A DNA stretch of 55,678 nt from a virus (Duplodnaviria > Caudoviricetes). The stretch's first letter is position 1, and every line of letters starts with the position of its first letter. The notes under the pieces were generated by a model. That model did not search any database. It had not been told where the DNA came from and worked only from the letters and a program-made list of their open reading frames with translations. This document shows, piece by piece, positions 7,254 through 49,361 of this stretch. The translations under genes were made by a program, and so were the position numbers. The stretch spans positions 1-55,678 of IMG/VR virus record IMGVR_UViG_3300020451_000899, one strand, 5' to 3'.

Positions 7254-10200
7254 GTGTCCAAATTCGTATTAACTGCTCAATTACAATTACAGGCTCCTAA
7301 TAATACTAGGCAAGTCGTACAGCAAATACAAAACCAGCTAAAAGGCGTTAATGTTAACGTCGCCGTACAAGGTACGGCTCAAGCCAATAAGCAAGTACAG
7401 AAGCTTTCTGGCAACCTAAATGCAGCTTCTAAAAATGCTGGCAAATTAGGAAAGAATTTTGCAGCTTCAGTAAGAAGATTTTCTGCTATGGCTATTGCCA
7501 ATAGAGCAGTCAGTCTCTTCACTAATACGCTGTCTGCTGCTATTTCTGAATCTATAAAGTTTGAACGAGAATTAGTTAAGATTGTTCAGGTCACGGGAAA
7601 AAGTACTGAGCAGCTTCAATTCTTGACAGACACTGTTAGAAATCTTGCTACAAGCTTGGGCGTGGGGTCTACCTCTTTATTAGGCGTTAGTAGAACTTTG
7701 TCTCAAGCGGGTATGTCTGCTAAAGAGACACAGATCGCATTGAAGACCCTTGCCAGAACTGAATTAGCACCTACATTTGAAAATATCACACAGACCGCTG
7801 AAGGTGCTGTGGCTATCTTTAATCAGTTTAGAGCTGGTGCTGCTGCTCTAGAAGAACAATTGGGCGCTGTTAACGCCGTAGCTGGTAAATTTGCTGTTGA
7901 AGCAGGTGACATTATCGCCGCTGTTCGTAGAACTGGTGGTGTCTTCAAAGCCGCTGGTGGTGACTTAAATGAACTTATAGCATTGTTCACTAGTGTTAGA
8001 TCTACTACACGAGAAAGTGCAGAAAGTATTTCTACTGGTTTACGTACTATCTTTACTCGTATTCAACGTCCTAAGACAATTGAATTTATGAAACAGTTTG
8101 GCGTAGAGCTGACTGACTTAGAGGGTAAATTCGTTGGTCCTTTTGAAGCTGTTAAAAGACTTAGTGGAGCATTAGCTGGTCTTGAACAGGGGGATGTAAC
8201 TTTTATTAAGATCGCTGAAGAGCTTGGTGGTTTTAGACAGATTGGTAAAGTTATTCCTTTGATCCAAGAATTTGCTGTAGCCCAACAAGCATTAAAAGTA
8301 GCACAAAAAGGACAAGATTCTTTAGCAAAAGACGCAGCATCTGCTCAAGCTGCTCTTGCTATTAGGATTGCTAAAGTAAAAGAAGAATTTCTAGAACTTA
8401 TAGATAATGTAACTAAAACACCTACATTCCAATTGATGGCTAGTGCTGCTCTTGGTCTCGCCTCTGCGTTAATTAAAGTTGCAGATTCTTTAAAAGTTAT
8501 ATTACCAATTATTACTGCCATAGCAGCTGTTAAATTTACAAAAGGTATTTCTGGATTTTTAGGTGGCGTTGCTGGCGCTTTCTCTGGAAAGGCTAGAGGT
8601 TTTAATAAAGGCGGTTTTGTTCCGGGGTCTGGCAATTCTGATACTGTACCAGCTATGCTTACTCCCGGCGAATTTGTTATTAGGAAGAAAAGCGCCCAAG
8701 CTATGGGCGGCGAGGCTCTAGGCGCTATCAATAAATACGCTAAGGGGGGAAAGATTTTAACCCGTAGACAACCAGTTGGTATGTTGGTCAATAGTATTGG
8801 TGAAGGAGATCCAAAAGACACGGAAGGTTCTGTTACTCTAAAAAGTATTAAGAGTGGTACTCCAGCCATTAACAAACTAAAAACAAAAGCAGCAAGTATT
8901 GGCAAGCCATATAAGTTTAAAGTAAAAGTAGCAAAATCACAGTTCAATAAGCAAGATAAATTCAAAACAGATGCAATAGACCCTGTTACTGCTAGCATTG
9001 AAGACGCTGCTGGAATGCTAGGTATTGCACCCAAGGGTGGCTTAGACAAAATAAATACTGCTTTAGGCCAAATGTTTGAAGATTTTGTAAATAAACAGGC
9101 TGGTCTAGATTCTCCGGGCAGTGCCAATTTTGACTTAGTTGACAAAGAAGCGGCTCTTAATGGTCTCACTAAAGAAAAAATTAAGAAATTTACTGATATT
9201 AAATTGCGAGATACAGATGAAAATGCTAATACGCTCGCAAAGAAAGCAGTAAATGAAGGATTATTTAATGCTCATGCTAAACGCGAATTTAATAAGATAA
9301 AAAATCAGAGATCGAAGAGAGTCAAAAAAGCTGCTGGTGGTTCTATTACTGGTGCAGGTTCAGACACAGTGCCAGCGTTACTGACTCCCGGTGAATTTGT
9401 AGTAAATAAAGAATCTGCTAAAAGTATTGGTTATTCTAATCTTAGCCACATGAACAAATACGCTGACGGCGGTATTGTTAGTCAGTTTAAAAGATCTGGC
9501 GTACAAGGGCTGTCTAATGGTGGCTTGCCTATGGTTCCGCTAGGCGCTTTGCAGGGTCAGGCTTATACACATCAGCAGGGTCAAAGCAGGATGGCTATGT
9601 CATCTCAAACTGCTCCTTCTCCTGTCGGCAAGGCTTCTAAGAAAACAGCAGAAGGTTTAAATGCATTAACTGGTGGTCTCGTTGGCGCACAGATGGCTCT
9701 TAGCATGTTGACACCAGCTATAGATGAAAATAGTAGTGGCACTATGAAAGCTACAGCTTTTGTAATGAATTCTATGAATAGTTTAGTTGGTACAATTACA
9801 TTAGTGCAAATGGCATTAGCCATTTTCGGAAAAGAATTGACGATGGACAGTGTTAAAAAATTCTTTAAAAACTTTGACATGGGCGATGTTAAAGACATGC
9901 TTAGTGGCAAGGGTGGTAAGATTAAAAGCGCCATTACTAAAGGAGCTACATCAAAAATTCAAGGTGCTGGCAAAGGTCTGCGTAATATTGGCAGGAACAT
10001 GTCTCAGGGTGCAAAGGCAATGGGAGGGGCAAGGGGCAAAGCTGCGAATCTAGCTGGCAAAGGTATACGGAATGTTGGTAGACTGTTCACAAAACTTGGC
10101 CCATCACTTGGTAAACTGATAGGTACAGTATCTGGACTTGTTGGCCCTATGACTCTTGCAGCTGGCACTGTTAGTATGTTTAATGGTTTCTTGGATTCTT

Positions 10201-13200
10201 ATACTGATTATGCAGCGAAGGCGAGTAAGGCAATCGAAGAGGGCAATGTGGCTTCTGCTGAAAAAGCCGCTGCGGAGGATCATGGAGCTAAGGCTGTAAA
10301 TAATGTCGTCACTGGCATGACCGCTTTGGCAGCTGTCGTTCCCGTTATTGGTCCCCTCTTGGCTACTGTTGGTGGGGTAGCAATAAAAGTTGCTAGCGAG
10401 TTGCCTTACGTTGGTAAATTTGTTAAAGAGTTTGCTTCTGGTATAAATGTAATGTTTGGTGGCAAAACAATGTCCAGCGTTGTTGCTATGGCTGGTGCTG
10501 CCGCCGCTGTTGCTAAGGCTCACAAAAACTTGGAATCTGGCATCAAAAAAGCCGCTCAAGCTATGGAAGATTTTAAGGCTGGTAGAATTAGCGTAACCCA
10601 AATGGTTCAAAAGACTGTCTCACAAACTAAGAACATAGATGAATCTAGAGAGAAGACTAAGGAAGCAATAAAAGAAAATAATAAAAACAAATCTGGCATG
10701 GGTGACGGCTTCATGAGAGGTACTGCTAGGGTTTTAACTCTTGGTATAGCTGGCTACATGGGCTTGGAGTCAGGCGCACAAAGAAACAAAGGCATTGATG
10801 AAGAAAATAAAAAAGCGTCGTTGGCTCAAATGGATCTTGACGCTAAACAAGGAGACATGCGTAGAGGCGCTGCCATGTCTGCTGCCAGATCTTCTTTTGC
10901 AAGTGGTAAATCTATAAAAGAAACTGAAGCAGATCTAGAAGCTCAAGGTTTAGGTCCGGGCGCTCAGAGAGAACAATCGAAAGAATATCTTAAGTTAGCC
11001 AGAGATCTAGAGGACAGTGGTGATAAAGAAGGAGGTAAACAAGCTAGGGAAGCAGCTGCTGCTGCGGAACAAAGAGCGCTTGATCTTGAGAGAGGTCTTA
11101 AGAATTTAAAAGAAGAAGTTGAAAGAAACATAAAAGCATTTGCAGCAATGAATTTGGGCCTTAACAGTTCTGTTGGCTCTGCTAATTCTATGAGCCTAGC
11201 CATGTCTCAATTTATGCAAGCTCAAGAGTCTGGCACATCCACCCTGATGAACAGTTTCAACACTTTGGAGTCTAGCGCTACTAGTGCAGCAGTAGGACTA
11301 AGTTCTGGCGCATTTAAGTCGTCAATGAACGAAGTCACTGGTGTAATGAAAGAGTTTGGAGCTAGTGGAGACCAAATTGACAAATTCCGTGGCAATATGA
11401 CCGCTGTGTTCCAAGCTCAGAAAAATTCTGAAAAAGGGTTGAAGAAATTCCAAGAACGACTAAAGTCTGATCAAGAAGGTGGATTAGGCGGTATGAATCC
11501 ACAAGAAAAATTAAATTCTCTTGTAGATACAATTTTGCCAGCCGGTATGGACGAAGATGTAAAGAAAAGATTTAAAGAGCAACTTGCTGGAATGGATATT
11601 GATTACGATCAGATTGCAAAAGGTGATTTTAGCCAAATTGAGGGAGCTTTCCAAGGTGTTGCTGATGCTCAACTGCAACAAGTCAAAGCCATTATGGAGG
11701 CTGAGAATCAGTATAGACAGGCTGTTCTTGATATTACAAAGAAACGATACGCAGCTGAAGACGCACTTATCGGCGCAACTAAGAAGACAGCGGATTTAAG
11801 AGCTGAATCTGAGAAGATCATTGCTGATGCTGGTGGTCCAGCATTTACTCCTGATAGACAAAGAGAAATCTTAATGGAGAAAACCAATGCTGGCGCTGGT
11901 GCTGCTGGTGTTGACCCATTGACAGGCATGAGTGCTGCGGACATTAAAAAACAACAACAAGATCTACAAACTAGAACTAAACAAGTTGAAGGTGCAAAAC
12001 AGCGTAATATTATTGGAAGTTCTGCTAAGATTGTAAAGGGCGATGCTGATCCCGCCGCCAGAGGAGCCATGACTGATGAAGAACGAATGGCTACTGATAA
12101 AAGCTCTGCTGACGTAGCCAAGCAAAATATGGAACTGCTTAACACTACCAGATCTTTGATTGATATTAAAAAGGCAGAAATACAAATTATTCAAGCCAAG
12201 AATAAACTTGAATCAGATTCATTCAACGCTCTAATGTCTGGTGATATTGACAGCTTCTTCCAAGCGCAATCGACATCGGGTGCTATGGGCGCAATTGCCA
12301 GTGGTAATACTGGTGACTTCTCTGCTGATCAATTGCAATCTGCATATGAAGAATTAAAGAGACAAGCAGACGCTGGCGTAACAGAGTTTAATGGTCAACA
12401 ATTACAGGGTCCGGGCGGCTTGTTGGAGAAAGCTGCCACATCAACTTTGACAGCTCGTGGTATGGACCCCGGAGCAGCAGCTGCTATGGCGCAGAGAAAT
12501 GTTCTTGGTAGTCCAGAAGAACAGGCTGCTAATGCAGAAATTAGAGAGCTTGCGGCATTGCTTCCGGGCTTTGGTGAAACAGAACAATTAGCTGCTAGTA
12601 TGCAGATTCAGGCAGCAGAATTGCAGTTGATGGCAGCTGGTAAGATTAAAGAGAAAAAGCTGGAAGAAGCAGAAAACTCTAAGACCCTAGCTGCTGGAGG
12701 CGTAGTATACGCATCTCGGGGTAAACTTATTAATTTCCAACCTAGAGGTACAGATACTGTTCCAGCAATGTTGACTCCCGGAGAATTCGTTGTTAACAGG
12801 TCGGCTGTTAGAAGTGGCAATAATCTGAGCGTACTCAAGGCTATGAACAGTGGGGCGCGTGGAGCAGCCACAGCCACAATGTCTAAAGGTGGTACAGTAT
12901 ACGCACAGGGTGGTGGTCAAATTGCAGGAGCTGGAGGTGCAGGGATGGATAGCTCTACTATGACCAATTTTGTCACCGCTTTAGAAAACTTCAACAAGAC
13001 AATTATGGAAAGCATCAATGCTCTTCAGAATACTCAATTCACAGTCAAGCTGGAGCCAACGACTGTTAATATTAACCTTACTGGTGGTTCATTCCTGCAA
13101 TCTCTAACAAGCAACCTCAAAGATCAATTACTGCAAACAATCGGTGAAAAATTCAGAAGTCTTCGCGTTAACAGTGATGGTAAGGTAGTCGAATCACAGA

Positions 13201-34916: not shown

Positions 34917-34947
34917 AAAAGAAAAGGGGGGCATTTCTGCCCCCCTT
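34917..34947 (-). terminator. Rho-independent terminator for the minus-strand operon
   Basis: Stem AAGGGGGGC/GCCCCCCTT (34924-34947) with 6-nt loop; the flanking AAAAGAAAA reads as a U-tract on the minus strand; sits at the convergence point. Confidence 0.85.
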
Positions 34948-34998
34948 AGAGATGATAACCTGAATCTAGAATACACTAGATGATAAGCTGAATCTCTA
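34947..34998. repeat. Structured non-coding element, copy A
   Basis: TAGAGAT-GATAACCTGA-ATCTAG-aataca-CTAGAT-GATAAGCTGA-ATCTCTA; same architecture as the copies at 48503 and 48564. Confidence 0.85.
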
Positions 34999-35328
34999 TT
35001 CTGCTACACCCTTCTTGGAGTTCCACTTGGTCCATCCATTGTCTGGTAGCCAATTGTCGCCATCCTTACGTTTAGGGAAGAGTCCTCCACCCTTCTTCAT
35101 GGAACCAAACGCAAGTTTAGCTCCACAGTCCATACATCGTAGCTCAAAGTATTCGTTTTCATCTACAGTCCTGACTACGAATCTAAGATTTTCAGAGCCG
35201 CACTTTCCACACTTTGTTTCTTCAAACACCTCTTGAAATTTGGATATTTGAGTGAAGAGTTCTCTGTGAGTGTCCGCATCGAACTCTGCTCTGATTCTGT
35301 TGTTTGCCGTTGTATAAGTTAACTTCAT
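34996..35328 (-). CDS. Zinc-ribbon protein
   Basis: CGKCG...CMDCG Cys pairs; 110 aa. Confidence 0.6.
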   Translation of the reverse strand: MKLTYTTANNRIRAEFDADTHRELFTQISKFQEVFEETKCGKCGSENLRFVVRTVDENEYFELRCMDCGAKLAFGSMKKGGGLFPKRKDGDNWLPDNGWTKWNSKKGVAE

Positions 35329-43447: not shown

Positions 43448-45013
43448 TTAAATTTCGTGGATTTTATCAACAATAAAGGAGCTATCATTCTTACTAACAC
43501 TTCCACAAAGTATGAGATTATTTCCTTCATATAATATATATTTATATTTAGATTTGACGCTGGGGAATATAATTACGCTATCTAATACAGACGATTCATC
43601 TTCTATAGTCAGAAATGACATAAGCTTCCCTTGGGAATCCCCTTTCTTTATTTTATAATCTGCCATTCTTGTTATGTTGCCAACTACACATAGATTCTTT
43701 CCCTTTTTACCATTAACTATTTCCTTACACGTTGTGTTGGCGGCAGACGTATCTGAAGCATCTACTTTAGACATGCTAACTGGACATCCCAAAAATCTAG
43801 TTTCTTGATCTATAATCCAGCTGGGGTCATCAGAAAGATCGTATGGGGGATCTTCCAGCAATTGTATTTCATTTTGGACAGCTTGACTTCTTTCTATTTT
43901 GTGGGTTCCACCCCCCTGTTTTTTTGTGGGAGCCAAGTCAGTAAGACACTTTATGAAGTCTTTCCATTTCTTTTGATTATAATTTTTTTGTATCCAAGCT
44001 TGTTCTGCTTTGGTTAGCGTTCTAAATATTTCGTAGTCGTAAAGCGCTTTGTTTCTGCTTATCTTTCCATCAAAGTCTCTAAAAAATCCTACAGAGGCTA
44101 GTGCTTTAAAAGCTGTTGAATTTATATTAGGAGCAAAAAACAATAGTATTTCTATCCATGTAAATTTTTTGATGTTTTTATTACATGTCTCTTCAGCCAA
44201 TTTGATTCCATCTGTTACTTTATCTCCTGTCTTTCCTGTCAGAGATTTAATATCTTTTATACCAAAATATACTTTCTTATTTTTTATATTGAACTTAGAA
44301 TCAAAGTTTGCTATACTAGGAGTCCTCGCCTGTATATCAAAGAGTTTCGCTTCTGATATTAACTCATATATTTCTTGATGTGGATCTTGTTTTTCATTTG
44401 CATAATACAAGTAGGCTAGAAAAAATTCTTCTGGATTGTGAGCCTTTTGGTAAGCACTCCAATAAGAGCATACTGCATATGATACACTATGAGACTTATT
44501 AAAAGCATATCTAGAAGATTTTTCAATCCAGCTAAATATTTCTTCAGCCGTGTCTTTGTCTACAATCCCAGTTTTCTTAGACCCAGATATAAACTTCTTT
44601 TTGACCTTAGCCATTAGGTCTGCTTTTTTCTTACCAATTGCTTTTCGTAGAACGTCTGCTTCTTCAAGATTGAAACCAGCTATCTTCTGTGCAATACGCA
44701 TAGATTGTTCTTGATAGACTAAGACTCCATAGGTTGGCATTAGTATTTCTTCTAGTGACTCGTGTAGATATGTCACATCCTCTCTACCATGCTTACGGTC
44801 AATGAAGTGTTGAGTCATAGACTTACCATCTACAAATGCTTTTAAGCATCCGGGACGTATAATAGCTATCAAAGCAGACAACTCTTCTAGAGTATTTGGT
44901 GCAAGTTTTTTAGACCAAGATTTTCCAAGATTGCTCTCTAGCTGGAACACGCCCTTGGTTTTACCTTCAGCGAACAATTGCCAAGTCTTTTTATCATCAT
45001 AAGATGTGTTCAT
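43448..45013 (-). CDS. dnaE: DNA polymerase III alpha subunit, C-terminal part (fingers, HhH, OB)
   Basis: TKGVFQLES, IIRPG, TYGVLVYQEQ, ADVLRKAIGKKK, YAFNKSHS, FG..DIK, C-terminal OB (M.FLTIED). Confidence 0.93.
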   Translation of the reverse strand: MNTSYDDKKTWQLFAEGKTKGVFQLESNLGKSWSKKLAPNTLEELSALIAIIRPGCLKAFVDGKSMTQHFIDRKHGREDVTYLHESLEEILMPTYGVLVYQEQSMRIAQKIAGFNLEEADVLRKAIGKKKADLMAKVKKKFISGSKKTGIVDKDTAEEIFSWIEKSSRYAFNKSHSVSYAVCSYWSAYQKAHNPEEFFLAYLYYANEKQDPHQEIYELISEAKLFDIQARTPSIANFDSKFNIKNKKVYFGIKDIKSLTGKTGDKVTDGIKLAEETCNKNIKKFTWIEILLFFAPNINSTAFKALASVGFFRDFDGKISRNKALYDYEIFRTLTKAEQAWIQKNYNQKKWKDFIKCLTDLAPTKKQGGGTHKIERSQAVQNEIQLLEDPPYDLSDDPSWIIDQETRFLGCPVSMSKVDASDTSAANTTCKEIVNGKKGKNLCVVGNITRMADYKIKKGDSQGKLMSFLTIEDESSVLDSVIIFPSVKSKYKYILYEGNNLILCGSVSKNDSSFIVDKIHEI

Positions 45014-45647
45014 TCTTTATAACCTTTTTCAACGTGTCGTTCTTTTTGTTTATGGCTGTTTCAACATCTTCATACAAAGTACTATGATTGCAAGCGTGGT
45101 AAATAAATTGACCCTGACCATTAAACGCTTTTGAAGGAAACACTGATACTATATCTGTCATCTTAGCTTTCATCATAAATTGGAATAAGTCCTGATCATT
45201 TAATTCATAATTATTCGTACTCGCACCTTGAAAATAAGACATCAAAAATGTAATAACTTTTTTATTGTTACTAAATATGATTGAACCAGTATTTACATTC
45301 CAAGATATATCATCTTTTCCATCTTCTGCTGCACATATCATTATATCCTTGTCTGTCATCTTGGTAAAGATTCTGATATCTATATCATGATCTAATACCA
45401 CAGCGTCTGCGTCTAGCATAAAAACATAGTCAAAGTCATTTGTTACCAGAACGTCTCTAGCTAGAAAAAACTTATGATAATAATCTTTGTATTTACCGCT
45501 ATACGAAGATAAATTTACACCATCATATTGAGTTATATATTTGATATTATGCTTTTTGCAATACCGTTTGTTTATAGTCTCAACAATTTGTTGTGTATCT
45601 TTAAAAGCTTTGTCAAAGTAAACGCACATGGCGACATTACTTGACAT
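44997..45647 (-). CDS. Glycosyltransferase, GT34 (GMA12/MNN10)-like GT-A
   Basis: K.YC.KH..KY, DYVFMLDADAVV (DxD), VNTG.IIF, NDQD, FIYH. Confidence 0.7.
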   Translation of the reverse strand: MSSNVAMCVYFDKAFKDTQQIVETINKRYCKKHNIKYITQYDGVNLSSYSGKYKDYYHKFFLARDVLVTNDFDYVFMLDADAVVLDHDIDIRIFTKMTDKDIMICAAEDGKDDISWNVNTGSIIFSNNKKVITFLMSYFQGASTNNYELNDQDLFQFMMKAKMTDIVSVFPSKAFNGQGQFIYHACNHSTLYEDVETAINKKNDTLKKVIKNEHIL

Positions 45648-46317
45648 ACAATCCCCCGTTGGCAAAAGCTTTTTCAAATTCAATATTCTGATACACAGCT
45701 CTGTGAGTTTTTAGCAATTTGATAAAGATGTTGGCTGTATCTTTTACGTCTTGTAATGCGTCGTGAGCATTCTCTGTAGATAGCCCCATGCGTTCTCGTA
45801 GTGAATCCATGCTGATAGACCTGATACTTGGATCTCCCTCTGTCCACATATGCATGTTATCCATGACATCGCATTTATGAATCTTGCTAAAGATTTTTTG
45901 TTGCTGCCTTCCATCATCAAATGGTCCATATTCTTTACATAAACGGTTGATGATAATCATATCAAAACCAATAATATTAAAACCAACAGGGATGGGATTG
46001 AAGAACGGGTCTTTTTTCCAATTGTATTGATCCACAAAAGAGCAGAACTTTTTCCATACCGACTTTAAAGCTGGAGCTTTAGCTAAGTCTGTTCTGTTTT
46101 TACCAGTTACTTTTAAAGCCCCATCTTCAATTGGATCTAATCCAGCAGCAATAGCTTTATCGTCGTCTAGTATGGGTTTGATCTCACTATTGAATGTTCC
46201 TTTCATAGCCAAATTTCTTCCATCTAGTGCCAACGCAGCGATTTGCGTGGGTTGAGTTTTGTTGGGGTTACGACTTCCTGTTTCAAAGTCAAAAACTATA
46301 TAATCTCTGTTTGCCAT
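45637..46317 (-). CDS. dnaQ: DEDDh 3'-5' exonuclease (DnaQ/epsilon-like)
   Basis: Exo I VFDFETG, Exo II GFNIIGFD, Exo III AHDALQDV. Confidence 0.88.
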   Translation of the reverse strand: MANRDYIVFDFETGSRNPNKTQPTQIAALALDGRNLAMKGTFNSEIKPILDDDKAIAAGLDPIEDGALKVTGKNRTDLAKAPALKSVWKKFCSFVDQYNWKKDPFFNPIPVGFNIIGFDMIIINRLCKEYGPFDDGRQQQKIFSKIHKCDVMDNMHMWTEGDPSIRSISMDSLRERMGLSTENAHDALQDVKDTANIFIKLLKTHRAVYQNIEFEKAFANGGLYVK

Positions 46318-46319
46318 AT

Positions 46320-46919
46320 TTATTTCCTTTTAGTAAGATCGGTATTCAATGAATCTGTTTTAGACTGTCTGTTGCTATATCCCTTCATATTCATGTAATT
46401 TAAGAATTGCGTCAACTTAGGGCTGTTGCTGTTACCCTTGCAAGCGCCGCCACAATGTATGTGTTCAAATGTAATATGAGAGACGTTGTATTTATTATAG
46501 TCGATAGTGTAAAGAATGTCAACATCAAGACCCTCAGTATCTATGTATAATCTTTCAATATCTTTTATATTATATTCTTCTAGTACTGAAGTTATAGTTC
46601 GAGCCGGATGGTTTACTTCAACAATATTTTCTGGAGGATGTCGATGGACTAACATGTGATCATAACTAAAAGACGTATGACCACTAAACATATTATTTTT
46701 TACATGGTAAAGAGTTATTTCTTCTTGATTGGAGTCTGGAGTGATAGCGCTTACAATAGTAGTTAATTTCTTTACATTTTTATATACTATATTTGCATTG
46801 TCTATAAAAGACTTATCAATGTCTATAAGTATTAGATGGTCAATTTTATCATTATTGTTATTAACATATCTACTCACATGATCATTACAATCATTACAAC
46901 CTATTTGTATTATATTCAT
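46320..46919 (-). CDS. FkbM-family methyltransferase
   Basis: IIQIGCND, LYIDTEGLDVDIL, ITFEH. Confidence 0.8.
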   Translation of the reverse strand: MNIIQIGCNDCNDHVSRYVNNNNDKIDHLILIDIDKSFIDNANIVYKNVKKLTTIVSAITPDSNQEEITLYHVKNNMFSGHTSFSYDHMLVHRHPPENIVEVNHPARTITSVLEEYNIKDIERLYIDTEGLDVDILYTIDYNKYNVSHITFEHIHCGGACKGNSNSPKLTQFLNYMNMKGYSNRQSKTDSLNTDLTKRK

Positions 46920-48478
46920 TTTTTTAATTCCGTTATTTTCATCAATTTGTCTAAGAGATTGATGCCTAAAACATCAAACTTTACATGACCTAATGCTTCT
47001 AAGTCTGCCATTTCCAATCCAGCTATCTTTTCGCTTGAACCCTTTTGTACAACCATAGGGCATACGTTTTTCAATTGATCCTTAGATATTACAACGCCAG
47101 CTGCGTGTTTGCCCTGAGTTTTAAATGTACCTTCAATGTCAATTGCCTGCTGAAAGTATTCTGCGTAGTCTCCATCTAAATTGCCTTCATCTGTAATATG
47201 GCAAAAATCTCTCAATTCATCTGCCCTATTTATTAATGCCCATCTTATAATAGATCTGTCTTCATTGTCCATCTCTGCAAGTTGGTCAGATATATCTGCT
47301 TCATTTGGAACACTTTTGGTAATAGCGTTCATCTCACTAAAAGAACATGCCTCATTGACTCTAAGCACTTCTTTAATAGCGCTACGTCCTTGCAATCTAC
47401 CAAATGTAATCATTTGACTTACATGTTCGGTTCCATACTTTTCTTTTAAATAATCTATAACATCGTCCCGCTTCTTGCCGGGGACATCCATATCAATATC
47501 TGGTAGAGACACATGACCGCCAGTGTTACGCCCAGCGTTGTAGAATCTTTCAAATAGTAAATCATATTCTACTGGGTCAATTTTAGTTATTCCAATTAGG
47601 TATGATATTAAACATCCAGCAGCAGAACCTCTCCCCGGACCAGCTAAACATCCCATATCTTTTTCAATATGTCTTATGATGTCTTGCACAATTAAAAAGT
47701 AACCAAAGAGATCTGCGTCTTTAATAACTTTTAGCTCTTTTCTAAATCTATTACCGTACAACTCTCTTCTTGTTTCGTCGTCTCCAACCTTTTTTGATAG
47801 AAATCTCTTATAACCTTCACGCGCCATATTTGTTAAATACTCTTCTTGAGACAAACCTTTTGGGCAAAGAAACTTTGGTAGCATTGGTGGGCTTAATATT
47901 TCATAGTCTTCACACGATTGGTATATGTTTTCCAATTCTTTTGTAGCACCACCCTCTGTAATGCATTTATTGTCTTTAGTGAAGTATTCCAGTATTTCTG
48001 GGGTCAATTCATTTTTTCTAATCTTAGTCTGTATTTTGGGTAGTGTAGTCTTTAGTGCAGAGCATAATAATACTCTGTGTAAAGTAGCTTGTTCTTTTTT
48101 CGCATAATATGATGGATTGATGCTATCCTTAGATTTAGATACTGCTATAAGATTATTTCTACTTATAATATCTTTAGCAATATCTTTGGGCGTATTACCG
48201 TCTGCATCAGTCATTGATACCATCTGTATAAGATCGTGCCAGCCATCCTTGTTCTTGGCGTACACAGTCGTATTGTCAAATGAACAGCCAATGATTGGCT
48301 TAATGCCAACCTTCTTGCAGGCTTGATGGAAAGATACTGCGCCTGATATAGATTTATAGTCCGTAATCCCACAGGCTGGATAGTCATTGTCCGCACAAAT
48401 CTTTGCAAGCTCGTGCGGCTTAGAAAATCCTTTTAGTAAACTATAATGCGTAAAATTCTTCAATGGAAACCAGTTCAA
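46916..48478 (-). CDS. dnaE: DNA polymerase III alpha subunit, N-terminal part (shortened PHP, palm/thumb)
   Basis: THYSLLKG, GITD, GPGRGSAAG, PDIDMD, GKHAAGVVI, KFDVLG; TTG start with GAGGAGG RBS. Confidence 0.93.
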   Translation of the reverse strand: MNWFPLKNFTHYSLLKGFSKPHELAKICADNDYPACGITDYKSISGAVSFHQACKKVGIKPIIGCSFDNTTVYAKNKDGWHDLIQMVSMTDADGNTPKDIAKDIISRNNLIAVSKSKDSINPSYYAKKEQATLHRVLLCSALKTTLPKIQTKIRKNELTPEILEYFTKDNKCITEGGATKELENIYQSCEDYEILSPPMLPKFLCPKGLSQEEYLTNMAREGYKRFLSKKVGDDETRRELYGNRFRKELKVIKDADLFGYFLIVQDIIRHIEKDMGCLAGPGRGSAAGCLISYLIGITKIDPVEYDLLFERFYNAGRNTGGHVSLPDIDMDVPGKKRDDVIDYLKEKYGTEHVSQMITFGRLQGRSAIKEVLRVNEACSFSEMNAITKSVPNEADISDQLAEMDNEDRSIIRWALINRADELRDFCHITDEGNLDGDYAEYFQQAIDIEGTFKTQGKHAAGVVISKDQLKNVCPMVVQKGSSEKIAGLEMADLEALGHVKFDVLGINLLDKLMKITELKK

Positions 48479-48502
48479 TCTTTCCTCCTCAATTTATAAG
48501 TT

Positions 48503-48554
48503 GCCAGATACTAGCATGAATCTAGAATTAACTAGATGATAATCTTAATCTGGC
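48503..48554. repeat. Structured non-coding element, copy B
   Basis: GCCAGAT-ACTAGCATGA-ATCTAG-aattaa-CTAGAT-GATAATCTTA-ATCTGGC. Confidence 0.85.
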
Positions 48555-48563
48555 TTTGTATGG

Positions 48564-48617
48564 TGACGGATAATAAGTTGAATCTAGAATTAACTAGATG
48601 ATAATATGAATCCGTCA
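48564..48617. repeat. Structured non-coding element, copy C
   Basis: TGACGGAT-AATAAGTTGA-ATCTAG-aattaa-CTAGAT-GATAATATGA-ATCCGTCA. Confidence 0.85.
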
Positions 48618-48656
48618 TGTATCAATGTGTTTTACAACTGTCGTTTTTCTGGCTCG

Positions 48657-49361
48657 TCAGACCTTGGGCTGTCTGTCAAGGGTATCTTCTCTGGTTCCGG
48701 CTTGTTCATCATAATGCTCTTTGATTTTAGGGTATAATTTATTTACTGCTATAACGCTTGCTTCATTGTCTGATGGGTAATGAACTCCCTGTAATATTCT
48801 AGCCAAAGCGCAGTACTTTGCCAATTCAAAAAAATCTTTTTTATGTTCAATATATTTGTTAGACAAAACGTGGGCTATCAATTCTGCATACATTGTGTGA
48901 CCACTGGGATAAGACGGGGTGTAATGCGTCTCTGTGTATAAGATATTAATTTTCTTATTGTAATATGGAGCTATTTGTTCTGGCCTCGCTCTATTAAAAT
49001 AATACTTTAAAGCATACATGTATTGTTCTAACACATTGTAATAACTATTAATAGTGGCTACAGGGAAGCTCAAATTTCTTTGCTCTAAGAAAGGTAGAAA
49101 TATATTAACGGGTGAATCATCAACATTATATACTAAGTCAATTTCCCTCCTAGTCCTAGACCGTGTAGCTTCTATAATAGCGTCTAATTCTCTAGACGTT
49201 GTTGCGCTACTGTTTTTAGGTGGTGCTGGTATAATACTCTTAAAGTCTATATCAAGTGTAGAAATATGATCATCGTATGACACTTTATTTGCTAAGTAAG
49301 CAACGTCATCTATATCTCTGCTAGTATCTATAATTTTGGCTACGTTATTTATTAAGCTCAT
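48657..49361 (-). CDS. PAP2-superfamily (class A acid phosphatase/haloperoxidase-like) phosphatase
   Basis: K-x6-RP (KYYFNRARP), PSYPSGH, ARILQGVHYPSD. Confidence 0.88.
   Translation of the reverse strand: MSLINNVAKIIDTSRDIDDVAYLANKVSYDDHISTLDIDFKSIIPAPPKNSSATTSRELDAIIEATRSRTRREIDLVYNVDDSPVNIFLPFLEQRNLSFPVATINSYYNVLEQYMYALKYYFNRARPEQIAPYYNKKINILYTETHYTPSYPSGHTMYAELIAHVLSNKYIEHKKDFFELAKYCALARILQGVHYPSDNEASVIAVNKLYPKIKEHYDEQAGTREDTLDRQPKV

Follow-up and report, generated by a model that had tools for sequence, protein, structure and literature searches.

REP elements are thought to stabilise or to end transcripts. Correia elements, which at ~100-150 bp are longer than the hairpins described here, are flanked by a TA duplication. 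The archaeal BHB motif, target of a dimeric endonuclease, has two 3-nt bulges with a 4-bp helix between them; the K-turn is defined by tandem sheared G.A/A.G pairs adjoining a 3-nt bulge; and the integron attC site has an integron integrase nearby and conserved R-box letters. Excerpts of PMC3867540 describe RNase III as a homodimer that cuts 2 bp apart and leaves 2-nt 3′ overhangs, report that loops or bulges at its target lead to single-strand cuts and that the resulting 3′ hairpins stabilise the RNA, and name the BHB endonuclease in passing. In Neisseria, Correia elements are mobile inverted repeats that RNase III binds and then cleaves or protects (excerpts of PMC2649163). T4-like phages carry PeSL cassettes, repeated composite intergenic motifs of early and plastic regions that mark gene gain, loss and exchange (excerpts of PMC4122927 and PMC2839356).

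Here we report a large, previously undescribed family of folded repeats in uncultured marine phages, located between their early and replication genes. Three copies lie in the window, that is, the whole 55,678-nt stretch of phage DNA that was analysed. Megablast found no close cultured phage, and the best tblastn identity to its DnaE N-terminal protein was ~33%. The host is bacterial, as indicated by the phage gene set, which includes DnaE, DnaB, a DnaG-type primase, RecA, a sigma-70 region 2 match and Shine-Dalgarno sites.

The three hairpins, 52-54 nt each, are found where a preliminary description had placed them and fold as it proposed, with a layout of stem, 10 nt, ATCTAG, 6-nt loop, CTAGAT, 10 nt and stem, and with outer stems that differ in sequence and pair perfectly in all three copies. 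Copy A (48503..48554, minus strand; 72.8 bits with covariance model R1) has its outer stem at 48503-48509/48548-48554, its inner stem at 48520-48525/48532-48537 and its apical loop at 48526-48531; a central 2-bp helix joins 48541:48512 and 48540:48513, and the bulge triplets occupy 48542-48544 and 48514-48516. Copy B (48564..48617, minus strand; 80.3 bits with model R1) has the outer stem at 48564-48571/48610-48617, the inner stem at 48582-48587/48594-48599, the apical loop at 48588-48593, the central helix at 48603:48574 and 48602:48575, and the triplets at 48604-48606 and 48576-48578. In copy C (34947..34998, minus strand; 65.9 bits with a covariance model), the corresponding positions are 34947-34953/34992-34998 for the outer stem, 34964-34969/34976-34981 for the inner stem, 34985:34956 and 34984:34957 for the central helix, and 34986-34988 and 34958-34960 for the triplets. 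A repeat search groups these copies as one three-copy family. Their 18-nt half-unit occurs six times, always on the + strand, against an expectation of 1.54, a number reached in 1/100 shuffles.

On the sense strand, copy B lies ~40 nt past the stop of a PAP2-family phosphatase-like gene (48657..49361, minus strand; PF01569, E 2.2e-13) and 9 nt upstream of copy A, which itself is separated by 24 nt from the TTG start of the downstream gene (46916..48478, minus strand), encoding the N-terminal part of a split DnaE (Pol III alpha). Copy C is placed differently. The last gene of the minus-strand module (34996..35328, minus strand), encoding 110 aa with a weak zinc-ribbon match, has its stop codon in the outer stem of this copy, whose sense-strand 5′ arm opens with that TAG. 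The intrinsic terminator of the minus-strand replication operon (34924..34947, minus strand), a 10-bp G+C-rich stem and then a T run, comes directly after, so copy C falls within the 3′ end of the minus-strand transcript. In relatives without this hairpin, the same gene stops at TAA and leads straight into the terminator.

Energy-based folding formed the proposed shape for all three copies on either strand, with energies of -17.0, -17.1 and -14.7 kcal/mol (z -4.1, -6.1 and -2.5) for minus-strand RNA and of -16.6, -18.6 and -13.7 kcal/mol (z -3.9, -5.1 and -3.2) for + strand RNA. Across 37 distinct copies, 94.3% of stem cells were paired, versus 74.7 +/- 1.1 in shuffled alignments, a level that 0/500 shuffles reached, and double changes were found at 10/14 stem pairs. 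The earlier argument for selection on a folded nucleic acid, rather than a plain repeat, is upheld by these figures, and the covariation indicates that the hairpin is almost certainly a real fold under selection.

Covariation also extends into the internal loop. There, position 7 on either strand is paired with position 8 on the facing strand; each of the two resulting central pairs is Watson-Crick in 110/112 copies, with four pair types and zero wobble, and they match the best stem pairs in mutual information. The open symmetric 10x10 loop of the preliminary description is thus crossed by a covarying, strictly Watson-Crick 2-bp helix, mostly 5′-YR-3′ on each strand. Nearest-neighbour folding of copies A, B and C does not predict this helix, which would therefore need protein or tertiary contacts. 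The pairs that flank it are A:T in 97/112 copies and T:A in 95/112; being invariant, these A-U pairs are left unproven by covariation.

Read in the sense direction, an outer stem of 7-12 bp leads into TCA-NNN, the 2-bp helix, TY, a 6-bp inner stem of ATCTAG type and a 6-nt loop, and the loop string TCA-NNN-YR-TY recurs on the return strand. The letters TCA and TY and the inner stem are conserved; the outer stem is variable. As read from the aligned copies, the shape shown is a rod spanning about two helical turns; its two-fold axis passes through the 2-bp helix, and its opposite strands each carry a 3-nt bulge. The symmetry noted earlier is borne out by covariation, and this architecture predicts a specific, dimeric binding partner. 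The detailed letters of the preliminary description were less general. Its arm consensus, GATAAnnTGA, is confined to this contig, and the first arm of the copy at 48503 is off at three specified positions; relatives keep only TGA, one A and the R/Y pattern. A first collection pattern that required the GATAA arm gave 0 matches because that arm is contig-specific. Likewise, AUGAUAA-n-CUGA occurs twice in the copy at 34947-34998 only and not in the other two, and the loops, previously called conserved rather than variable, contain at their centre the most variable sequence in the region.

Orthologous loci provide examples of joint change. Between copy A and the locus L013, positions 48541 and 48512 changed together from T-A to C-G, and in the orthologue of copy B in L030 the outer stem shows a compensatory change from TGAC/GTCA to TAAC/GTTA. 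Over seven orthologous loci, divergence is 4% in the stems and 28% at third codon positions, while the 24-nt leader from copy A to the DnaE start, which includes a GAGGAGG ribosome site, is invariant (0%; 0 of 23-24 positions changed in every pair of loci). That the locus-specific outer stems, the spacer and the leader are steadier than protein-coding positions points to a cis function for the phage.

Covariance models recovered at least 112 distinct copies across marine viral and metagenome contigs. No Rfam family matched the window at the gathering threshold, in agreement with the earlier statement that no family could be assigned, and 185,579 bacterial and archaeal species genomes gave 0 matches. 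A separate structural scan returned ~10 further chance-like matches that the covariance model did not confirm. The window carries three copies and the related records G001, G002 and G006 carry seven, five and four, with arrays of six elsewhere; tandem arrays show a higher-order repeat, partial copies and one deletion between neighbours. All but one of the site types are intergenic, and flanking gene families are diverse (27 clusters among metagenome loci). The 35-kb opposite-strand structural module of the window contains no copy, nor does that of G001. One variant lies in frame within a 144-aa ORF, which would be easier to understand for tolerated selfish DNA than for a site of mRNA processing.

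Presence of the element varies among close relatives. Five related records, 60-83% complete and with DnaE 79-86% identical, are without any copy, and a second covariance model also found none in three of them. In G016, a PhoH gene and a zinc-ribbon gene abut as TAATG; the same junction in G001 holds three hairpins, 200 nt in all. Gene content next to the hairpins varies, and one mosaic boundary coincides with them. Among 145 ORFs of G001 and the window, none was common to element-bearing records yet absent from G016-G018, all of these records being partial.

The preliminary description had taken the + strand as the folded one. Counts in 112 copies favour the minus strand: sense-strand stems contain 38 G.U versus 10 A.C mismatches, with 23 versus 3 in the outer stems and a less one-sided 15 versus 7 in the inner stem. 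A strand-biased mutation spectrum could mimic such a wobble signal. The element shares the strand of its flanking genes in 43/43 matches from viral records and in 91/96 from metagenomes; the five exceptions comprise two convergent junctions like that of copy C, two sites beside poorly coding early regions and one partial match of 22.6 bits. Copies are variously flush with stop codons, before ribosome sites (4-25 nt ahead for copies A, B and many others), beside tRNAs or formed as terminator stems. Four loci have the hairpin directly against the 3′ end of a tRNA-Ile gene, and the outer stem is followed by a sense-strand T run in L181, L184, L218, L164 and L197. A general terminator role was rejected because a strong T run follows only 11/114 copies. 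No conserved sense-strand promoter was found, and no promoter hexamers are conserved across sites. Reading GATTC as a GANTC methylation site was also dropped, since the outer site is often GAGTTC or GGGTTC.

Wobble counts, copy orientation and the use of some copies as terminator stems or tRNA trailers together favour the gene-sense strand, here the minus strand, as the one that probably acts. For the acting form, the balance tilts slightly towards RNA rather than ssDNA. Contigs of one RNA library overlie copy B (48552-48713), assembled contigs of this kind showing neither transcription, strand nor ends, and DNA may be present in the library. Assembled contigs from four sequencing runs are fragmented and break around the repeats.

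Our main reading is that the hairpins are phage-borne, REP-like intergenic palindromic repeats that would be transcribed in early and replication mRNAs and act as folded RNA of the sense strand; on sequence comparison, we give it a probability of roughly 0.45. On both sides, a homodimeric RNA-binding or RNA-cutting protein would read the invariant TCA, the T-Y letters and the ends of the stems, and would ignore the bulged triplets. By binding or cutting, it would divide the polycistronic transcript or leave it capped by stable hairpin ends, and the outer stem could double as a terminator where a T run comes after. Like a small mobile element, the repeat may spread to further gene junctions, where its 5′ foot provides a TAG stop and its 3′ foot leaves space for a ribosome site. 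The leading candidate for the partner would be host RNase III, with its two active sites cutting 2 bp apart. This specific assignment, made by analogy, is rather unlikely to be the correct one. An RNase III domain was not found in three element-bearing records, so the partner would come from the host; among the partial records compared, no phage gene has a distribution that follows that of the element.

A minor share of the probability goes to a function at the DNA level, in which the sense strand folds as an ssDNA hairpin, for instance as lagging-strand template or as non-transcribed strand, and a dimeric transposase, recombinase or nicking nuclease recognises, copies or moves it. The element would then be essentially selfish, like REP/REPIN, attC and IS200-end hairpins, and its 2-bp centre would be a crossover or cleavage dinucleotide. 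Such a view accommodates the multi-copy, patchy occurrence among equally close relatives, the coexistence of empty and filled sites, the irregularities of the tandem arrays (higher-order repeat, partial copies, deletion between neighbours), the in-frame insertion in an ORF and the 27 clusters of flanking gene families. The single orientation is compatible with a strand-specific ssDNA substrate, the strictly Watson-Crick central pairs have a YR preference, and exposed unpaired ssDNA bases could account for the fast triplets. However, six-frame searches of five element-bearing records found no Y1 transposase or IS110 domain while recovering positive controls, Pfam scans contained no transposase or recombinase domain, and no gene tracks the element. 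The conservation of locus-specific outer stems, spacer and leader above coding positions, the lack of copies in the 35-kb structural modules of the window and G001, and the copies that are clearly terminator stems or tRNA trailers also speak against this view.

A further view, the nearest form of the earlier box C/D idea, has little chance of being right: the + strand RNA would act, with two kink-turn-like halves (bulged strand NNN-U-G-A, facing strand U-R-A) back to back on the common 2-bp helix, bound by an L7Ae-type or other K-turn protein. On that strand the invariant letters do read U-G-A. By position counts, the bulged-strand G and A do not vary; on the facing strand, A occurs in 85-88% of copies and R in ~95-96%. 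The facing G is found in 52/112 and 75/112 copies, so that tandem sheared G.A/A.G next to each stem is possible in ~57% of loop strands (127/224) and the G for the second sheared pair is missing in ~43%. The bulge would be 4 nt rather than 3, and wobble pairs favour the opposite strand by 38 to 10. Promoter-like hexamers on the + strand in copies A (TTGCCA-16-TAGAAT) and B (GTGACG-16-TAGAAT) have their -35-like part in the covarying, non-conserved outer stem. This view would also place every copy antisense to genes, on a strand that offers no terminator.

The protein and RNA relatives that such a view calls for were sought directly. Rfam C/D models, run in E-value mode, scored 8.9-16.5 bits (E 4-9.5) against gathering thresholds of 37-70, and these sub-threshold snoRNA matches, far under gathering, were set aside as noise. 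The L7Ae domain PF01248, detected in seven control genomes, was found in 0/5 element-bearing records, which are 33-75% complete, and the IS110 domain PF01548 in 0/5 by six-frame search with positive controls found; Pfam scans contained no L7Ae, Nop or IS110 domain, consistent with the earlier remark that no protein of these types was recognisable. The GAUGA-type arm behind the box C/D likeness is not conserved in relatives. Bridge-RNA-type covariation was not found among the columns of the element, where only 7:8′ and 8:7′ covary within the loops. Membership of the box C/D or IS110 bridge-RNA families, or a guide role, is not supported.

The bulged triplets behave quite differently from the rest of the element. 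They differ at 10/12 positions between two contigs that differ at 32/300 third codon positions, and they are randomised between genomes otherwise 96-100% identical; they change far faster than the surrounding DNA, above synonymous sites. Their usage is near-random (56/64 possible triplets observed), and each genome bears many different ones. No column elsewhere in the element covaries with the NNN letters, and neither pairing between the two triplets of a hairpin nor sameness of its two loops was found. Among 224 loops there were 170 distinct 5-mers, with 65 identical pairs versus 44.6 +/- 6.7 expected; gene conversion from a small pool was rejected as the triplet source on this diversity. A passive spacer role gives no reason for triplets to outpace synonymous sites.

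It is conceivable, although improbable, that the triplets are not idle and that a rigid, dimer-recognised scaffold displays two freely changing 3-letter words, through local non-DGR diversification or through diversifying selection. Diversification might proceed by cut-and-refill or by damage at extruded bases; under diversifying selection, the phage would carry varied decoys or substrates for sequence-reading host nucleases. A narrower proposal is very improbable: that the triplets are specificity letters, each genome carrying an assortment of hairpins that would serve such nucleases as decoys or competitive substrates, or a dimeric enzyme as short guides. It draws on the same evolution above the synonymous rate, on an otherwise frozen scaffold, and on the near-random variety within each genome. 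Against it, no other feature of the element correlates with the triplets, a target could not be addressed by as few as three letters, and neither the phyletic profile, the Pfam scans nor the six-frame domain searches revealed an associated enzyme.

Least probable of all are double-stranded operators, iterons or promoters, with a phage regulator binding two direct, 28-bp-spaced units CTAGAT-N10-ATCTAG: the half-unit is indeed a direct repeat with palindromic ends, copies A and B stand upstream of a polymerase gene and a -10-like hexamer, read by eye, lies 16 nt past the 3′ loop TTCA in three cases, but a dsDNA site does not explain covariation between the ends of different units, which outer stems and central pairs show with up to four pair types, copy C and the tRNA-trailer copies sit at the ends of transcription units, and the candidate hexamers vary from site to site.

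Large uncultured marine phages are abundant, and the organisation of their early and replication gene expression is almost unknown. The family is a widespread cis element in these genomes, conserved more strictly than the neighbouring proteins, and it combines within 60 nt an extreme contrast of rates: frozen stems and leader, a 2-bp helix that changes by double substitution only, and randomised 3-nt bulges. If the fast triplets mark a mutational hot spot, they report hairpin formation in vivo; if they reflect selection, they record an arms race on a non-coding structure. Active triplets would make these hairpins hypervariable cis elements of a kind new to phage genomes. The covariance models from this analysis can be used to annotate the element in viromes.

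Set beside known systems, the family is only partly matched by each. Like IS110 bridge RNAs and box C/D RNAs, it has a stem, a two-sided internal loop and a stem, and UGA letters when read on the + strand; unlike them, it has only three free letters per strand, which covary with nothing. Unlike at an attC site, no recombinase turned up in the Pfam scans, and the conserved letters are TCA, TY and the ATCTAG inner stem, the outer stem being variable. With the BHB motif it shares two 3-nt bulges on opposite strands, each 5′ of a short central helix, and two-fold symmetry, whereas its central helix is 2 bp instead of 4 bp and the phage host is bacterial, not archaeal. PeSL cassettes combine a promoter with a terminator stem-loop; for the phage hairpins no conserved promoter was found, a strong T run follows 11/114 copies, and the structure is more elaborate and covaries, yet gene content beside them varies and a mosaic boundary falls at them in the same manner. 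The RNase III sites of phage T7 are also intergenic hairpins of about two helical turns in polycistronic phage mRNA, with a conserved internal loop, and our hairpins likewise stand between co-oriented cistrons; the core letters (TCA ... TY) and the double bulge are not known from T7 sites. From REP elements the family differs by its restriction to phage contigs (0/185,579 species genomes), by having no GTAG-type 5′ motif, by its two-fold core with the 2-bp helix and two hypervariable 3-nt bulges, and by its single orientation, REP, BIME and REPIN copies being alternating; the RAYT/Y1 transposase PF01797 was found in 0/5 element-bearing records, which are incomplete, with positive controls found. 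It nevertheless resembles REP/BIME and REPIN repeats in being a short, imperfect extragenic palindrome of many copies, intergenic within operons and often in tandem, whose stems stay paired while their sequence drifts and whose presence differs between close relatives.

Three hairpins, at positions 48503-48554 (copy A), 48564-48617 (copy B) and 34947-34998 (copy C), were confirmed by inspection with the layout of the preliminary description (an outer stem, a 10-nt loop strand, an inner stem of the ATCTAG type, a 6-nt apical loop and the mirrored return), and a repeat search placed them in one family. The 18-nt half-unit occurs six times in the window, exclusively on the + strand, against 1.5 expected, and the fold was obtained for each copy on both strands, with z-scores of -2.5 to -6.1. 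The window, an entire IMG/VR viral contig (55,678 bases) and 33% complete according to CheckV, comes from a tailed phage. A tail module with a tape measure and very large tail proteins extends up to 34913 on the + strand, and a replication module encoding a split DnaE, a proofreading exonuclease, SSB, primase, DnaB, a dNMP kinase and glycosyltransferases runs on the minus strand from 34996 to the contig end. On the minus strand, a PAP2-like gene is separated by 178 nt from the TTG start codon of the gene for the N-terminal part of DnaE, and copies A and B take up the greater part of this gap. Read on that strand, copy C opens with TAG, the stop codon of the replication module's last gene, and runs directly into a G+C-rich intrinsic terminator (34924-34947, T run on the minus strand) at the convergent junction of the two modules. 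Lying between minus-strand genes, or between a minus-strand stop and a terminator, all three copies are therefore inside minus-strand transcription units and in one orientation. When the terminator is read on the + strand, copy C follows and no T run is present there.

Several other features of these regions were recorded. Sigma-70-like hexamers are found on the + strand within copy A (TTGCCA-16-TAGAAT, 48501-48528) and copy B (GTGACG-16-TAGAAT, 48563-48590); their -10-like part is the inner stem and apical loop, their -35-like part the non-conserved outer stem, and transcription from these predicted promoters would enter the PAP2-like gene in antisense. The two parts of the split DnaE (43448-48478, minus strand) are encoded by separate genes, the N-terminal part at 46916-48478 and the C-terminal part at 43448-45013, and the gene for the proofreading exonuclease (45637-46317, minus strand) lies between these. 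Two extra ORFs in this gap, 46320-46919 with an FkbM methyltransferase domain and 44997-45683, whose sole match is 32% in the related record G018, are absent from six other related records (G001, G003, G006, G007, G016 and G017). The tape-measure gene (1985 aa) contains three diverged 70-nt direct repeats (8633-8702, 9356-9425 and 12746-12815; 63-70% identity).

With the DnaE N-terminal protein as query, 67 related loci were recovered from viral contigs. Seven of these loci (L013, L023-L026, L030 and L071) carry orthologues of A and B; in L071, a deletion fuses the first loop of B to A. The more distant L038, L039 and L062 carry a variant with the compensatory inner stem ATCGTC/GACGAT in place of ATCTAG/CTAGAT. 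A covariance model of the family (R1), run over whole viral records, found further copies, for example seven in G001, five in G002 and three in G003, for a total of 43 hits (37 distinct). A pattern scan of metagenome contigs gave 96 hits (86 distinct) at 58 loci, bringing the family to 112 distinct full copies. The same pattern had no match in 185,579 bacterial and archaeal species, represented by one genome each, and the hairpins match no Rfam family. The earlier observation is confirmed and extended by these results.

Both stems covary. In the 37 distinct viral copies, 94.3% of stem cells hold standard pairs, compared with 74.7 +/- 1.1% after shuffling, a level reached by none of 500 shuffles; sliding the partner by one to three columns lowers pairing to 16-41%, and double changes are seen at 10 of the 14 stem pairs. 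The overall outline stands, but the internal loop is not open as first described: it is crossed by a 2-bp Watson-Crick helix. A mutual-information scan revealed two pairs, joining positions 7 and 8 of the 5′ loop strand to positions 8 and 7, respectively, of the 3′ loop strand, with values as high as those of the best stem pairs. Over the 112 copies, the first central pair is U-A in 46, A-U in 28, C-G in 23, G-C in 13 and unpaired in 2, and the second is A-U in 51, G-C in 48, U-A in 8, C-G in 3 and unpaired in 2, with no wobble pair among 224 cells. Each loop strand reads, in gene sense, T-C-A, N-N-N, Y-R, T-Y. T1 and A3 are near-invariant (one departure, at A3, among 224 strands), C2 is retained in 216 of 224, T9 in 85-88% of copies, and about 95% have a pyrimidine at position 10. 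A pair between A3 and T9 of opposite strands is possible (A-T in 87% and 85%), a contact too invariant for covariation to show. The core is thus a two-fold symmetric rod, made of the central helix and, 5′ of it on each strand, a bulge-like triplet. As the central helix is absent from the nearest-neighbour fold, it must be held by protein or tertiary contacts. Since TAG is present in many 5′ arms as well as in the inner stem, each hairpin can be described as two direct copies of a basic unit, CTAGAT, 10 nt, ATCTAG.

The preliminary description had folded the + strand; the sense strand, minus in the window, is probably the folded one instead. In the sense orientation the stems contain 38 G.U against 10 A.C mismatches (outer stems 23 against 3, inner stems 15 against 7), and the opposite strand swaps these values. 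The hairpin shares its strand with the neighbouring genes in all 43 viral hits and in 91 of the 96 metagenome hits; of the other five, two are at convergent junctions resembling that of copy C, two adjoin early regions that code poorly and one is a weak, partial match. No copy was found in the opposite-strand structural modules of the window and G001. A terminator-like T run directly follows the outer stem on the sense strand at L181, L184, L218, L164 and L197. At four loci a tRNA-Ile(TAT) gene precedes the hairpin on the same strand, and its final base is the first of the hairpin (position 991 in L164, L173 and L212, 407 in L201); a long T run follows the hairpin, which thus forms the 3′ trailer of this tRNA's precursor. 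In L104, a hairpin is found 66 nt upstream of a tRNA-Glu gene. We assign a probability of about 0.7 to the sense strand being the folded strand, RNA and single-stranded DNA of that strand fitting alike. A hairpin site recognised by an enzyme at the DNA level is the strongest competitor. Orientation, position within transcripts and wobble bias are explained most simply by RNA. An antisense double K-turn RNA, folding from the other strand, appears improbable in view of the same bias, and the comparisons with box C/D and bridge RNAs failed on tests of membership. A duplex operator also appears improbable, since a dsDNA site would not account for the covariation of outer stems and central pairs.

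The triplets occupy loop positions 4-6. Mean pairwise differences across the seven orthologous A/B loci were 4% in stems, 0% in the 24-nt leader, 7% in the 9-nt spacer and in apical loops, and 9, 4 and 28% at first, second and third DnaE codon positions, as against 71% at loop positions 4-6, contrary to the earlier statement that the loops are conserved. Between the window and L013, 58 of 1600 positions differ, of which 16 fall within the four loop strands (40 nt in all) and none within stems; positions 4-6 differ at 10 of 12, versus 32 of 300 third codon positions. In copy A of this pair, one central base pair has gone from T-A to C-G through joint changes at position 7 of one strand and position 8 of the other; double substitution thus maintains the small helix even over so short a distance. 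L023 and L024, identical over 900 coding bases, show a single difference, at one position 4. We also compared all pairs, which are not independent, among 89 distinct copies with 150-nt flanks: triplets differ at 3/18 positions with identical flanks, 5/36 with flanks 0.9% different and 48/66 with flanks 3.3% different, while the rest of the element shows one change, in a TCA, in the first two classes. Transversions account for seven of eight triplet changes in the closest pairs, compared with 71 transversions to 128 transitions in flanks at 2-10% divergence. L025 and L026 (L025 4900-9741) form a sharp mosaic of 10-20% stretches alternating with ~0-1%, one boundary falling at the A/B hairpins; in such a population single pairs can mislead on rates, the pattern nonetheless holding across classes and loci. 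The speed of the triplets may be driven by a local mutational process or by diversifying selection. They look random (56 of 64 triplets observed, 170 distinct 5-mers among 224 loops) and show no correlation with any other part of the element; a specificity or decoy role for them appears improbable. That stems, spacer and leader, although specific to each locus, are strictly conserved argues for a function in cis.

The two-fold symmetry of the core favours a homodimeric protein as its reader. RNase III, according to PMC3867540, is a homodimer that makes its cuts across the minor groove, 2 bp from each other; where a target contains loops or bulges, the enzyme is steered to a single cut or to binding without cleavage, and RNA is stabilised by the hairpin ends that remain. 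Cuts 3′ of each strand of the central helix would have exactly this geometry. Six-frame searches with positive controls detected no RNase III domain in three records and no IS110, L7Ae or Y1 transposase domain in five, all of them partial. Pfam/PHROG scans, which covered the ORFs of the window, 33 from G001 and 106 of 117 from G006, identified genes of replication and of nucleotide and sugar metabolism, together with HNH nucleases and a protein with sigma-70 region 2, and no transposase, recombinase, L7Ae or RNase III. Among ORFs of G001 and the window, none was common to the element-bearing records and missing from the hairpin-free G016-G018, these records being partial. A 162-aa protein of G001 (12426-12914, + strand), whose sole match is sigma-70 region 2, is present in element-bearing and element-free relatives and may be a phage-encoded sigma factor.

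The distribution of copies is patchy. Five related records (60-83% complete, DnaE 79-86% identical) carry none, a single 18.6-bit hit (E 0.06) being noise, and with R2, a model including the central helix, 19 copies were detected across the window, G001, G003, G006 and G007, against zero in G016-G018. The PhoH and zinc-ribbon genes overlap by TAATG in G016 and are separated by three hairpins (200 nt) in G001. A 110-aa gene ends with TAA straight into the terminator in G016-G018, and in a TAG belonging to the hairpin 5′ arm in the window, G001 and G003. In G007, a hairpin lies between a RecA-like gene and the next gene, a site empty in G001, G003, G006 and G016. G003 (L083) has an extra 5′ half hairpin just upstream of its full copy-C orthologue, which, with the L071 deletion, points to recombination between repeated parts. 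In L038, L075 and L076 the variant lies in frame within a 144-aa ORF, and loop centres differ between close relatives there too. Six-hairpin arrays without long ORFs (L193 517-926 and L218 837-1246), each three repeats of a type-1 hairpin, a type-2 hairpin and a T run, look like tandem small-RNA units; differences between the two are almost confined to bulge letters. At the metagenome loci, flanking ORFs form 27 similarity clusters.

The element behaves like a small mobile repeat, and it is alike in kind to REP elements, to Correia elements (PMC2649163) and to the PeSL cassettes of T4-like phages (PMC4122927). No description of it was among the papers listed by literature searches on repeated intergenic hairpins in phage genomes; PeSL cassettes were the closest element found in print. 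The hairpins form a previously undescribed family that belongs to a familiar class of elements, set apart by an unusual, well-defined core and a hypervariable feature.
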